A stretch of 64,000 nt of DNA from Nanobdellota archaeon (GTDB lineage: Archaea; Nanobdellota; Nanobdellia; CSSed11-243R1). The notes under the pieces are model-generated. The model ran no database searches, was not told the origin of the DNA, and worked only from the letters and a program-made list of their open reading frames with translations. The stretch is taken from contig JAGGYW010000013.1 of the NCBI GenBank assembly GCA_021162365.1, forward strand, positions 8,960 to 72,959. Reading direction: 5' to 3'. Below, piece after piece: positions 19,402 through 56,605 of this stretch; the first letter of the stretch is position 1; every line of letters begins with the position of its first letter. The position numbers and the translations under genes were made by a program.

Positions 19402-19475
19402 GGGCCGATAGCTTAACCTGGTAAAGCGCCGCCCTCGCACGGCGGAGACTCGGGGTTCAAATCCCCGTCGGTCCA
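19402..19475 (+). tRNA. tRNA-Ala (anticodon CGC). Intron-less. G3:U70 identity pair. CCA not encoded.
   Basis: Manual cloverleaf. Acceptor GGGCCGA/TCGGTCC, anticodon loop CTCGCAC, T-arm CGGGG-TTCAAAT-CCCCG. Confidence 0.85.
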
Positions 19476-19554
19476 CTAAAACCTTTTTCTTAAAAAGAAA
19501 AAGCTTTACCAAAAAGAAGGAATTGGAGAAGTCTTGAGGAAAAGAAGTTCTAGA
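19476..19554. repeat. tRNA 3' trailer carrying an AT-rich palindromic mini-hairpin (ctttttcttaaaaagaaaaag). Member of the TTTCTT..AAGAAA hairpin family seen elsewhere in the window.
   Basis: Seen in sequence. Confidence 0.4.
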
Positions 19555-26283: not shown

Positions 26284-26927
26284 TGGAAAGAGATGTAAAG
26301 TATTATTTTAAAAAAGTTGAAGATTTTCCATTTCCGGAGATATTTAAAGTTGATGATGTCATAAAAGTCCTTGACGAAAAGGACAAGTTGTTGTCTAAAT
26401 TTAAGGAATCTGAAATTAAAGGCACGATGGGTAAGAATGTACATTTTGAGGGTGTAGTGATTCTTGAAGAAGGTGCAAGGGTTTTACACAATAGTATCAT
26501 AATTGGACCGGTATATGTAGGCAAAAATACAGTTGTTGGTCCTGATGCACATATAAGGAGCGGCACAATAATCGGTAACAATTGCAAGATAGGAAAAACA
26601 GAGATAAAAGGAAGTGTTATTATGAATAATGTTCGCGCGGACCACTTTGGATATGTTGGTGATTCAATTCTTGGGGATTCGTCTCATTTGGGTGCTGGAG
26701 CTGTAACCGCGAATTTTCGCTTTGATGGAAAGGAAACTTTTGGGCGTCGCAAGCTTGGGGCAATAGTTGGTGACAACACTCAAGTTGGGGTAAATGCAAC
26801 TACACTTCCTGGAACATTTATAGGTTCAAATTCTTGGATATACCCTGGAGTTGTGGTAAGGGGGTTTGTTCCTGAGAATTCTATCTTAAAGTGGAAGCCC
26901 AATTATGAAATTGTTGAAAAGAAGTAA
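26283..26927 (+). CDS. Left-handed beta-helix (hexapeptide-repeat) acyl/acetyltransferase, GlmU C-terminal-domain-like. No nucleotidyltransferase domain.
   Basis: Repeating [LIV]G-x-x-x-x hexapeptides (IGPVYVGKNTVVGPDAHIRSGTIIGNNCKIG...). Directly follows glmS. Confidence 0.6.
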   Translation: MERDVKYYFKKVEDFPFPEIFKVDDVIKVLDEKDKLLSKFKESEIKGTMGKNVHFEGVVILEEGARVLHNSIIIGPVYVGKNTVVGPDAHIRSGTIIGNNCKIGKTEIKGSVIMNNVRADHFGYVGDSILGDSSHLGAGAVTANFRFDGKETFGRRKLGAIVGDNTQVGVNATTLPGTFIGSNSWIYPGVVVRGFVPENSILKWKPNYEIVEKK

Positions 26928-27174
26928 GGCCCCGACGGGACTTTCGTGCAAGCCTTTTCTTAAAAAGAAAAGCCTTGAGGGAAAAGAAGTTTCTTTCCCT
27001 GCAGACTTTCTTTCCTAAAGAAAGGCTGCTTTCGAACCCGCAACCACCTGGTTTCTCCTCTCTTCTTTGCTCAAGCTTTCTTTCTAAGAAAGCTTGTCCG
27101 AAGCCAGGCGCTCTATCCAGGTTGCTTCAACACCTCTTCTTTCTAAGAAAAGGTGCTGATTAAGCTACGGGGCC
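26927..27174 (-). tRNA. tRNA-Arg (anticodon TCG) interrupted by three introns: D-loop, canonical anticodon-loop 37/38, and T-loop 59/60. 248 nt for a ~73-nt mature tRNA.
   Basis: Manual parse of the minus strand. Exons GGCCCCG-TA-GCTT-A..CCTGGATA-GAGC-G-CCTGG-CTTCGG[intron]A-CCAGG-TGGTT-GCGGG-TTCGAA[intron]T-CCCGT-CGGGGCC-T. Introns carry palindromic TTTCTT..AAGAAA mini-hairpins. Confidence 0.6.
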
Positions 27175-33692: not shown

Positions 33693-33789
33693 ATTACTCT
33701 TTCCACAACTTACGCTTTGACAAGACTTCGTCTCGGCATAAGCGACGGAGTCGCTCTGTCTCTTCTTCCTAAAAAAGAAAGGGCAGAAG

Positions 33790-34047
33790 AGGGCCCGGTG
33801 GGACTTCCAAGCACTCGCCAAGAGTTTCTCTCTTAGCGCAGGTTCTCTCTTTTCAAAGAGAGAAAGTGCTTTCGAACCCACGACCCCTTGCTTGCCACGC
33901 TCCCTCTTTCTTTCCCGAGGGTTTCTTTCTCGGGAGAAAGAAAGGCTCTTAGGAGGCAAGTGCTCTATCCAAGCTTTGCCACGCACCCATTCTGCCAGCG
34001 CTTTTCCGTGCACGCTTTTTTAAAGGGTGCGTTTGAGCTACGGGCCC
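33790..34047 (-). tRNA. Candidate tRNA-Arg (anticodon CCT) with multiple introns: D-loop, anticodon loop, T-loop 59/60. The variable region is atypically long (possible extra intron), so the model is tentative.
   Basis: Manual parse. GGGCCCG-TA-GCTC...CTTGGATA-GAGC-A-CTTGC-CTCCTAA[intron]GCAAG-...-GTGGG-TTCGAA[intron]T-CCCAC-CGGGCCC-T. Introns contain gtttctttctcgggagaaagaaagg-type hairpins. Confidence 0.45.
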
Positions 34048-39125: not shown

Positions 39126-39348
39126 ACTCTAAAGTTAAAATAGTTGCTTTAATAAATCTTTCGCAGCACCTTCTTAGAAAGAAGCTGCACCAAGAAAATC
39201 TTTCTCTTAAAAAGAAAGCTTAACTAAAGAAATTTTTTTCTCTTAATGCATGTTCTCTTTTCTAAAGAGAAAATGCTAAGAAACCTGCACTAAAGAAAGA
39301 ACATTTCACTTTTCTTTTTTGTAAAGCTTTTTAAGAAAAAGGTTTTAA
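39126..39348. repeat. Intergenic block packed with TTTCTT..AAGAAA mini-hairpins (cttcttagaaagaag; tctcttttctaaagaga) and the 22-nt repeat (39280-39301).
   Basis: Seen in sequence. Same motif family as the tRNA introns. Confidence 0.45.
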
Positions 39349-39422
39349 TGGGCCCGCTGGGATTTGAACCCAGGTCCCAGCCTCCGCAGGGCTGTATTCT
39401 ATCCAAGCTAAACTACGGGCCC
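39349..39422 (-). tRNA. tRNA-Arg (anticodon GCG). Intron-less. CCA not encoded.
   Basis: Manual cloverleaf. Acceptor GGGCCCG/CGGGCCC, anticodon arm CAGCC-CTGCGGA-GGCTG, T-arm CTGGG-TTCAAAT-CCCAG. Confidence 0.8.
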
Positions 39423-39503
39423 AAATTTAAAAAGCAGAGTTTGCTTTATAAATGTTGATTTATGCTTCTCTCCAGTGACGAAATCTTTTTAACTTAACTA
39501 TTT

Positions 39504-55518: not shown

Positions 55519-55698
55519 TGGGCCCGCCCAGATTTGAATTCCCCGACCCCGTCAACTTCTTTTCCGTTGACGCTTTTCTTCTTAAGAAAAGGGTCACTGG
55601 GGACCTCCCGCGTGTAAGGCGGACGTCATAACCATTCTCCACTCCTTTCTTTGGTGCAGCTTTCTTTTCCAAAGAAAGGTGCGCTAGACCACGGGCCC
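55519..55698 (-). tRNA. tRNA-Val (anticodon TAC) with two introns: D-loop, and T-arm 53/54 or 59/60 (boundary ambiguous). No canonical anticodon-loop intron.
   Basis: Manual parse. GGGCCCG-TG-GTCT-AGC[intron]TGGTTA-TGAC-G-TCCGC-CTTACAC-GCGGG-AGGTC-CCCAG[intron]TTCAAAT-CTGGG-CGGGCCC-A. Introns contain cctttctttgg...ccaaagaaagg and cttcttaagaag hairpins. Confidence 0.55.
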
Positions 55699-56363: not shown

Positions 56364-56541
56364 TGCGCCGTCCGGGATTCGAACCCGGGTTACAAGCTCT
56401 TCACACACCCTTTCCGTACACGCTTTCGCTTGCGAAAGGGTGTTGGCAAGCTCGCGTCCTAACCATTGTCCGTTCCTTTCCTTTCTTGGCAACCTACCTT
56501 CTTTTCTAAAGAAGGCGGAAAGGTCGCTAGACTAACGGCGC
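56364..56541 (-). tRNA. tRNA-Gly (anticodon GCC) with two introns: a ~60-nt D-loop intron and a canonical ~45-nt anticodon-loop intron.
   Basis: Manual parse. GCGCCGT-TA-GTCT-AGC[intron]TGGTTA-GGAC-G-CGAGC-TTGCCA[intron]A-GCTTG-TAAC-CCGGG-TTCGAAT-CCCGG-ACGGCGC-A. The anticodon intron has an ACACCC/GGGTGT helix. Confidence 0.65.
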
Positions 56542-56605
56542 ACATTTTGAGTATATTTTAGGGGATATATAAATCTTTTTAAACACACACCTTTGAAATA
56601 TTTTT

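Follow-up and report, generated by a model that had tools for sequence, protein, structure and literature searches.

In the present study we describe a doubly interrupted tRNA gene in a 64,000-nucleotide (nt) stretch of the archaeal contig JAGGYW010000013.1, the whole of which is hereafter called the window. The gene, on the minus strand at 56541..56364, is best explained as a tRNA-Gly(GCC) gene that is functional and transcribed as one unit in a DPANN archaeon (Nanoarchaeota sensu lato) and that contains two archaeal introns removed by protein enzymes, and we estimate the probability of this explanation at about 85%. One intron is placed at the canonical site between tRNA positions 37 and 38 and the other, at a non-canonical site, in the D-loop. 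Read on the minus strand, the locus is composed of the following parts:

56566..56580, minus strand: putative archaeal promoter, an A-rich stretch AAAAAGA (56580..56574) resembling a B recognition element, followed by the TATA box TTTATATA (56573..56566); read from the sequence
56364..56541, minus strand: complete pre-tRNA-Gly(GCC) coding region, 178 nt, with G1 at 56541 and the discriminator A at 56364
56527..56541, minus strand: exon 1, tRNA positions 1-15 (acceptor 5' strand, U8 A9, D-stem 5' strand GUCU, A14 G15); from segmentation and splice-site scan
56466..56526, minus strand: predicted non-canonical D-loop intron, 61 nt (CGACCUUUCC...CGGACAA), between G15 and U16; from the splice-site scan
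56444..56465, minus strand: exon 2, positions 16-37 (D-loop remainder UGGUUA, D-stem 3' strand GGAC, G26, anticodon stem 5' strand CGAGC, loop UUGCCA)
56447..56445, minus strand: anticodon GCC
56399..56443, minus strand: predicted canonical 37/38 intron, 45 nt (ACACCCUUUCGCAAGCGAAAGCGUGUACGGAAAGGGUGUGUGAAG); from ARAGORN, the bulge-helix-bulge (BHB) scan and enforced-fold energies
56364..56398, minus strand: exon 3, positions 38-73 (A38, anticodon stem 3' strand GCUUG, variable loop UAAC, T-arm CCGGG-UUCGAAU-CCCGG, acceptor 3' strand ACGGCGC, discriminator A)

The locus was not called by ARAGORN at default settings or by Rfam at the gathering threshold. Across the window, default ARAGORN called only tRNA-Ala(CGC) (19402-19476) and tRNA-Arg(GCG) (39348-39423), and Rfam at the gathering threshold agreed. 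A stem scan recovered the acceptor stem GCGCCGU/ACGGCGC at 56364..56541, the ends of the 178-nt region being those of a tRNA (GCGCCGU...ACGGCGCA, minus strand, 56541 down to 56364). When a 60-nt insert was deleted from the D-loop, ARAGORN called the remaining sequence as a faultless tRNA-Gly(GCC) whose one intron, of 45 nt, starts immediately behind position 37. Splicing both introns in silico gave the product GCGCCGUUAGUCUAGUGGUUAGGACGCGAGCUUGCCAAGCUUGUAACCCGGGUUCGAAUCCCGGACGGCGCA, which folds into a cloverleaf with stems of 7/4/5/5 base pairs (bp), an anticodon loop of 7 nt (U33, the GCC triplet, position 37 a purine) and a 7-nt T-loop, and in which U8, A14, G18G19, U54U55C56, A58 and the T-loop UUCGAAU are all present. 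The product also carries C2:G71, G3:C70 and A73, which we take to be the archaeal/eukaryal GlyRS identity set for tRNA-Gly. By its sequence the gene is a tRNA-Gly(GCC), as a preliminary description of this stretch had proposed, and the canonical intron named there was recovered at 45 nt by both ARAGORN and the splice-site scan. The ACACCC/GGGTGT helix that it placed at the splice junctions is likewise present and forms the inner helix of the 37/38 intron.

Two other identities were tried and rejected. The tmRNA model (Rfam RF00023) reached 28.6 bits in E-value mode as compared to a gathering score of 47, a partial tRNA-like match within the same clan, and a split or permuted tRNA gene does not agree with three exons that are colinear inside 178 nt. 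Reading of both introns revealed no box C/D motifs (RUGAUGA, CUGA).

Orthologs of the gene were fetched through related contigs of the adjacent TYW1 gene. In six such contigs a tRNA-Gly(GCC) is found upstream of TYW1 at the same syntenic position, and the local order (two small open reading frames (ORFs), tRNA-Gly on the opposite strand, TYW1) is kept. Four of the six genes (L005, L006, L134 and L138) are intronless, each exactly 72 nt long and with the D-loop AGUGGU(U/C)A. The other two are interrupted: L004 (GCA_024277205.1) has a 49-nt intron at the same D-loop site, a 37/38 intron near-identical to that of the window and a third intron in the T-arm, and L137 (GCA_003563585.1) has a 58-nt intron at the same D-loop site, a 19-nt 37/38 intron and a T-loop intron at another T-arm position than that of L004. 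Exon 2 and the anticodon stem CGAGC/GCUUG are common to the three interrupted genes, which by sequence comparison form one clade. The simplest history is therefore that one acquisition, probably in the common ancestor of this clade, accounts for all three D-loop introns; the T-arm introns of L004 and L137 arose independently. In the closest relatives by TYW1 (L001-L003, 91% identity) a phosphoribosyltransferase gene is found upstream of TYW1 in place of tRNA-Gly, showing that synteny at TYW1 is already broken in the nearest sampled genomes.

Alignment of the seven orthologs, three of them spliced in silico, showed standard pairs in all 147 of 147 cells of the cloverleaf (21 pairs in each gene), with 25 compensatory cells. 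The covariation score was 0.49 as compared to 0.17 in shuffles, none of 500 shuffles reached 0.49, and slid registers of the cloverleaf paired at no more than 45%. Compensatory changes were visible also among the three intron-bearing genes, where pair 7-65 is U-A, G-C or A-U. Since all cloverleaf pairs are held and compensatory changes occur, among the interrupted genes as well, the alignment argues that these tRNA-Gly genes are under purifying selection and are not pseudogenes.

To locate the splice sites, every pair of sites around each insert was scored for BHB geometry, in which the central helix H has 4 bp, each of two 3-nt bulges is cut behind its second nucleotide, and the helices h and h' flank the motif. 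For the D-loop insert a single pair gives a 4/4 central helix, with the 5' site after G15 (UAG|CGA) and the 3' site after pre-tRNA nt 76 (CAA|UGG). Here GUCU(10-13) pairs with GGAC at the 3' end of the intron, which mimics the 3' strand of the D-stem, the bulges are AG|C and AA|U, and the inner helix consists of one G-C, an internal loop and then CCUUUCC/GGAAAGG (7 bp). The motif has the features of the relaxed HBh' type, as it is positioned outside 37/38 (site 15/16) and has a 4-bp central helix, bulges and an intron-side helix, with an h of 0 bp. According to ViennaRNA with enforced pairs, the splice-competent D-loop fold of the full pre-tRNA costs +1.6 kcal/mol over the minimum free energy (MFE) structure. 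In L004, where U13-G is replaced by U13-A, all four pairs of this register are Watson-Crick and h' is a contiguous 12 bp; the register also forms in the unconstrained MFE structure of L004. The interrupted genes have kept the site of the D-loop intron although its sequence has diverged, and the splice helix shows covariation. The D-loop intron also contains UUGCCAAG (56495-56502, minus strand), which is equal to the anticodon-loop sequence that is formed only once the 37/38 intron has been removed (UUGCCA^AG). This is probably a chance likeness, since the orthologous introns of L004 and L137 do not contain it.

The 37/38 intron gave the site pair (98,143), that is, A37 | A38, with UUGC/GUGA as H (two of its four pairs are G·U, the others Watson-Crick), CA|A and AG|A as bulges, of which the 3' bulge is clean, the anticodon stem as outer helix h (6 consecutive pairs by scan) and ACACCCUUUC/GAAAGGGUGU as an inner helix h' of 9-10 bp. 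The junction sequences at 37/38 are identical in the window and in L004, which fits functional constraint. The preliminary description had made its model depend on the formation of BHB motifs at the junctions, and both introns can adopt BHB-type motifs, that of the D-loop in the relaxed form without h.

Some of the observations on splicing weigh against our explanation. The D-loop motif has no outer helix, and its inner helix has a single G-C beside the bulge before the internal loop. In L137 the best D-loop register is (16,72), scoring about equal to (15,73), a shift of one nt. At 37/38 the inner helix is offset by one nt, leaving a 5' bulge of 2 nt (A(i1) pairs with U) or a 3x1 internal loop, and the strict BHB lies 6.2-6.8 kcal/mol above a slipped register of this helix, with the slipped register favored in L004 too. 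For comparison, the strict register costs +2.6 kcal/mol in the short intron of L137 and +0.3 kcal/mol in L054, a minimal member of the intron family described below. The predicted pair probability is at most 0.09 for both central helices. Furthermore, a tblastn search with an approximate M. jannaschii query, which is a weak test, found no ORF similar to the splicing endonuclease EndA within the window.

The alternative that fares best concerns the exact D-loop junction. In the preliminary description a D-loop intron of 60 nt was placed between C16 and U17 (AGC|...|UGGUUA), which leaves a mature tRNA of 73 nt with a 9-nt D-loop, AGCUGGUUA. The 73-nt product is, like the 72-nt one, called tRNA-Gly(gcc) by ARAGORN, 9-nt D-loops are common in tRNAs, and the one-nt shift in L137 indicates that the junction is not rigidly set by sequence alone. 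On the other hand, the sites (16,76) are not symmetric around a 4-bp helix, the only 4/4 register being (15,76); L004 backs a (15, x) register with its four Watson-Crick pairs; and all four intronless orthologs are 72 nt long with an 8-nt D-loop. We consider the 60-nt intron unlikely. A 61-nt intron and a 72-nt tRNA with the D-loop AGUGGUUA, as given by the 15/76 register, are most likely, since this is the sole 4/4 register and its D-loop is equal to that of the intronless orthologs, although the exact junction is by sequence uncertain by about 1 nt. Of the preliminary model, the presence of a non-canonical intron in the D-loop and its 3' end before UGG are thereby retained, while the 5' site is most likely after AG (G15), the intron is longer by one nt, and 73 nt as mature length is disfavored.

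Less probable still is that the gene is a pseudogene, a tRNA-Gly inactivated by insertion of repeat elements, with splice motifs that are fortuitous. The 37/38 insert does belong to a repeated element family that is also found outside genes, and the strict BHB at 37/38 is thermodynamically disfavored. Against this, the exons keep a flawless cloverleaf, with compensatory changes in three independent intron-bearing genomes, the D-loop intron has a conserved position and a covarying splice helix in spite of its diverging sequence, and the promoter box is intact. ARAGORN found no second tRNA-Gly(GCC) within the window, by default or in intron mode. In addition, interruption of this kind is shared by four of the window's six tRNA genes, among them those for Val and two Arg isoacceptors, and they cannot all be dispensable.

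Trans-splicing from separate transcripts, as in Nanoarchaeum equitans, with a terminator and an internal promoter inside the apparent introns, we regard as still more improbable. The lineage is annotated as Nanoarchaeota, the phylum where split tRNAs were discovered (PMC4033280), and degenerate element copies occur in the 3' trailers of the two intronless tRNAs of the window, so that intron and trailer sequences are related. The exons are, however, colinear and only 45-61 nt apart, the inserts have neither a box like TTTATATA nor a run of at least five T's, and both can form splice motifs in cis. Finally, a tRNA-Tyr(GUA) with a single 96-nt intron at position 27, as modelled by ARAGORN in intron mode (c[56363,56542], Tyr(gta)), can practically be dismissed, because the program handles one intron only, two introns yield the canonical Gly(GCC) cloverleaf, and alignment with six collinear orthologs, four of them intronless, rules Tyr out; the intron option, put forward earlier as a check, thus placed a tRNA at the locus and got its identity wrong.

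Taken together, the functional gene with two introns is the reading that we retain, and from it we infer the following pathway. Transcription from the TATA promoter would give a pre-tRNA of approximately 180 nt. EndA would then cut the BHB at 37/38 to release the 45-nt intron, and the relaxed HBh' motif between G15 and U16 to release the 61-nt intron, provided that the EndA of this lineage accepts relaxed motifs; at the latter motif the GGAC at the 3' end of the intron would imitate the 3' strand of the D-stem in pairing with GUCU(10-13). An RtcB-type ligase would join the three exons to a 72-nt tRNA, and the introns would probably be released as circles. The order of the two cuts may be that given here. 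The TATA-like box TTTATATA ends approximately 24 nt upstream of tRNA position 1, and together with the A-rich stretch it constitutes a putative promoter, as judged from the established archaeal consensus.

The 37/38 intron has a further property. It harbors an element by whose sequence it belongs to a family of related introns and elements that is widespread in archaea. The element is an imperfect palindrome. Drawn as a hairpin, nnAC·C·CUUU...AAAG·C·GUnn, it has an invariant C·C mismatch, and behind the hairpin comes the tail ACGGAAA. A covariance model, R1, was built from 118 copies of it and found these matches in or beside tRNA genes of the window:

56407..56445, minus strand: Gly 37/38 intron (left arm ACAC·C·CUUUC, loop GCAAGC, right arm GAAAG·C·GUGU, tail ACGGAAAG), 43.2 bits, E = 1.9e-11
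55557-55598, minus strand: Val T-arm intron, 51.2 bits, E = 6.1e-14, the best match in the window
33999-34032, minus strand: Arg(CCU) D-loop intron, 42.4 bits, E = 3.3e-11
19476-19518, plus strand: 3' trailer of tRNA-Ala(CGC), degenerate sense copy, 21.4 bits, E = 1.3e-04
39314-39348, minus strand: 3' trailer of tRNA-Arg(GCG), degenerate sense copy, 15.2 bits, E = 0.011
26947-26988, plus strand: Arg(UCG) T-loop intron, antisense copy, 29.2 bits, E = 4.6e-07
27031-26990, minus strand: Arg(UCG) T-loop intron, sense copy, 13.4 bits

In the Gly 37/38 intron the tail runs on into a second, perfect right arm, GAAAGGGUGU, and as a consequence the left arm can pair either with the first right arm, as a hairpin, or with the second, as the inner helix of the BHB. 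The motif AAGCGTNNACGGAAA is present in three copies in the window as compared to 0.05 expected, in the Gly 37/38, the Val T-arm and the Arg(CCU) D-loop introns. The D-loop intron of the Gly gene gave no R1 match at E ≤10 over 56466-56526, its likeness to the element being a loose one (CCUUUCC...GGAAAGG, AACGGA). Both trailer copies directly follow the tRNA and include a T5 run, and judged by this run they may double as terminators. The element as a general 3'-trailer or terminator feature of tRNAs was considered and found no support, as just two motif-selected cases were seen among 21 bystander tRNAs in other genomes.

The distribution of the element was determined by a scan of one genome per prokaryotic species with the pattern CCCTTT-N(1-20)-AAAGCGTNNACGGAAA. 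At least 118 stretches of reference genomes match (loci L007-L124), and approximately 20 matches are estimated to arise by chance, mostly in bacteria if so. The figures that follow hold among the matches listed, all but two of which are archaeal. They come from groups that include Aenigmatarchaeota, Woesearchaeota, Micrarchaeota, Nanoarchaeia, Iainarchaeota, Altiarchaeota, Undinarchaeota, Nanohaloarchaea, ANME-1/Methanophagales, Methanosarcinales, Methanocellales, Bathyarchaeia, Nitrososphaeria and Thermoplasmata. The family exists and its helix covaries. The supposedly variable NN region is the pairing partner of the three nucleotides before CCC. Position -3 is matched by core position 9 in 120 of 122 copies, in all four Watson-Crick combinations, where 31 would be expected if the two were independent, and for position -2 and core position 8 the figure is 117 of 122, the helix stopping exactly there. 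Over the alignment 92.6% of cells pair as compared to 77.3% in shuffles (0/500), slid registers reach at most 54%, and the covariation score is 0.272 vs. 0.065 in shuffles, again with 0/500. At the basal positions that covary, few G·U pairs occur, which hints weakly at a constraint that may act on DNA or on both strands.

The sites where the element is found are tRNA introns at D-loop, anticodon and T-loop positions, tRNA 3' trailers, a 23S rRNA gene and intergenic arrays. Its association with tRNAs was tested by a strict signature of T-arm and acceptor stem with random controls, which replaced a looser test (any 7-bp stem within 420 nt) that was discarded as uninformative, 88 of 125 copies being positive. 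With the strict signature 37 of 125 copies were placed in or directly after a tRNA, as compared to 16 of 620 random controls, a figure that undercounts genes with several introns. Where the T-arm is intact, the copies in or near tRNAs are 28 in sense and 0 in antisense orientation, and a strand bias this strong suggests a constraint at the RNA level. The only antisense element beside a tRNA seen outside inverted pairs within introns, among the copies examined, is in L138 at 2141-2181 on the plus strand, where a full-strength copy (54.1 bits) abuts the 5' end of the intronless tRNA-Gly(GCC).

Several loci show more complex arrangements. Tandem arrays with periods of approximately 66-79 nt were observed in L082, L057, L109 and L101; in L082 (~150-480, Iainarchaeum) five copies form a single tRNA intron, and in L057 (36-184, minus strand) two copies are located in a T-loop intron. 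In L101 and L109 a copy is flanked by direct repeats of 23-26 nt that have the look of incomplete tandem units and not of target-site duplications. CRISPR repeats were rejected as an explanation of the tandem copies, the would-be spacers being themselves repeated. In L019 (7-111, minus strand; Micrarchaeia, JAWAFC010000003.1) the 23S rRNA gene contains two tandem copies, and the 16S gene at this locus has a span of 2136 nt as compared to the 1478-nt model, which together mean that the rRNA genes of that metagenome-assembled genome are interrupted too. A subgroup outside tRNAs, from ANME-1, Bathyarchaeia, Nitrosotalea and others (L007, L008, L012, L013, L038, L051, L063, L088 and L120), has the core AAGCGUUU paired with a downstream AAACGCUU and then CGC, and within a single genome the identity of some of these copies extends further into their flanks, as would be expected of pieces of a larger repeat. 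The element is also contained in nine IMG/VR contigs classed as viral (L125-L133), none of which has a standard tRNA.

Rfam has no matching family for the element, and we found it described nowhere in the literature searched, which is weak evidence as coverage of subscription journals was thin. General ideas that bear on it have been published, namely intron "transposition" among the tRNAs of Thermoproteales (PMC4033280) and intron gain via integration of mobile elements (PMC3293823). The element may be mobile DNA, a signal at the RNA level, or both. We tentatively suggest that the Gly 37/38 intron, together with many tRNA introns, some rRNA insertions, trailers and intergenic arrays of DPANN, Altiarchaeota, ANME-1, Methanosarcinales, Methanocellales, Bathyarchaeia and Nitrososphaeria, might derive from a self-propagating, intron-forming palindrome of approximately 35-50 nt, an archaeal counterpart of eukaryotic Introners; this is possible, but we would not put it at even odds. 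Such an element would spread by insertion and by tandem or inverted duplication, and could be tolerated in genes for structural RNAs because the second right arm supplies the inner helix of a BHB. Alternatively, the conserved loop may be a binding site for a conserved archaeal RNA-processing factor.

Three further tRNA genes of the window are interrupted, and each of the gene models was verified by in-silico splicing:

55698..55519, minus strand: tRNA-Val(UAC), precursor of 180 nt, introns of 49 nt (D-loop) and 58 nt (T-arm), spliced product of 73 nt, accepted by ARAGORN
34047..33790, minus strand: tRNA-Arg(CCU), precursor of 258 nt, introns of 58 nt (D-loop), 57 nt (37/38) and 67 nt (T-loop), spliced product of 76 nt
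27174..26927, minus strand: tRNA-Arg(UCG), precursor of 248 nt, introns of 37, 45 and 90 nt, spliced product of 76 nt

The six tRNA genes of the window thereby hold ten introns, in what is a tiny sample. The D-loop intron of Val(UAC) closely resembles the D-loop intron of the tRNA-Gly of L004, and the 90-nt T-loop intron of Arg(UCG) contains an inverted pair of degenerate element copies. A G+C-rich stretch is located just downstream of Arg(CCU), at approximately 33713-33790. The tRNA-Gly locus itself is an island of 54-60% G+C in a genome of 36%. Among the genes nearby are those for the radical-SAM enzyme TYW1, ribosomal proteins S3Ae and S15, pilin-like proteins, form III RuBisCO and AMP phosphorylase, ArgRS and AspRS, all of archaeal type. 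The AspRS is 100% identical to a protein annotated as nanoarchaeotal, from a metagenome-assembled genome, and its next named relatives are from Ca. Nanoarchaeia (64%) and Aenigmatarchaeota (56%). These neighbors and relatives indicate that the window is from a DPANN archaeon.

Standard finders miss the Gly gene and its three interrupted neighbors, and genomes of this lineage would consequently seem to be without tRNA-Gly(GCC), Val(UAC), Arg(CCU) and Arg(UCG). The same has been noted for DPANN, where disrupted genes go undetected and some tRNA sets therefore look incomplete (PMC5829648). A very high density of tRNA introns is hereby extended to a lineage of Nanoarchaeota type, and such a density would imply a splicing endonuclease of broad specificity. 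The EndA types known to have broad specificity for relaxed motifs are (αβ)2, ε2 and loop-bearing α4, and loop-bearing variants in DPANN have been linked to increased disruption of tRNA genes (PMC5829648). If the palindromic core is indeed an intron-forming repeat across archaeal phyla, gain and movement of BHB introns would become directly testable, with a defined sequence family and both filled and empty sites to work on.

Compared to known mobile repeats, the element resembles, by analogy only, the bacterial REP/REPIN sequences mobilized by RAYT and the PATEs derived from IS200/IS605, as it is short and imperfectly palindromic, its mismatch being fixed and its single-stranded flank conserved, and is present in multiple copies as singlets, tandem arrays and inverted pairs. 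It is likewise analogous to eukaryotic Introners in being a repeated element that constitutes introns. It differs from all of these in that no associated transposase was identified, no target-site duplications were seen and the copies at tRNAs are biased to the sense strand.

Among known sets of interrupted tRNA genes, those of Thermoproteales (Sugahara 2008 and Fujishima 2010, here as summarized in PMC4033280 and PMC8450103) are comparable in density. As far as these summaries go, up to three BHB-type introns per tRNA gene occur there at canonical and non-canonical sites including the D-arm and the T-arm, related introns are found at different positions in different tRNAs, and standard finders miss genes, all of which applies to the window. 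The average in Thermoproteales is 0.84 introns per tRNA gene, with a record of 71 in 46 genes (PMC8450103), which is comparable to the ten in six genes of our very small sample. The window differs in being from DPANN/Nanoarchaeota and not TACK, in its 36% G+C and in that the core shared by its introns is conserved far beyond one order. The tRNAs of ARMAN/Micrarchaeota and other DPANN, which have ε2 or L3-loop α4 EndA, are similar to those of the window in having introns at various positions that need a broad-specificity endonuclease (PMC3239211, PMC5829648), and neither of these two papers reports the present gene or its intron family. The split tRNAs of Nanoarchaeum equitans share with it the nominal phylum and the disruption at BHB-forming junctions, whereas the exons of the window gene are contiguous and colinear at one locus, which points to splicing in cis.

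The nearest precedent for the gene as a whole is pre-tRNA-Glu(UUC) of Methanopyrus kandleri, which has a canonical intron and a D-loop HBh' intron that are both cleaved by EndA in vitro, the canonical one first (PMC5829648). As in the window gene, a BHB intron at 37/38 and a relaxed HBh' intron in the D-loop are thus combined in one pre-tRNA. It is another tRNA species, from a euryarchaeote with an (αβ)2 EndA without the specific loop. A tRNA gene with a D-loop intron and a canonical intron is therefore an architecture already known in archaea, and it is the element in the 37/38 intron that appears to be undescribed.

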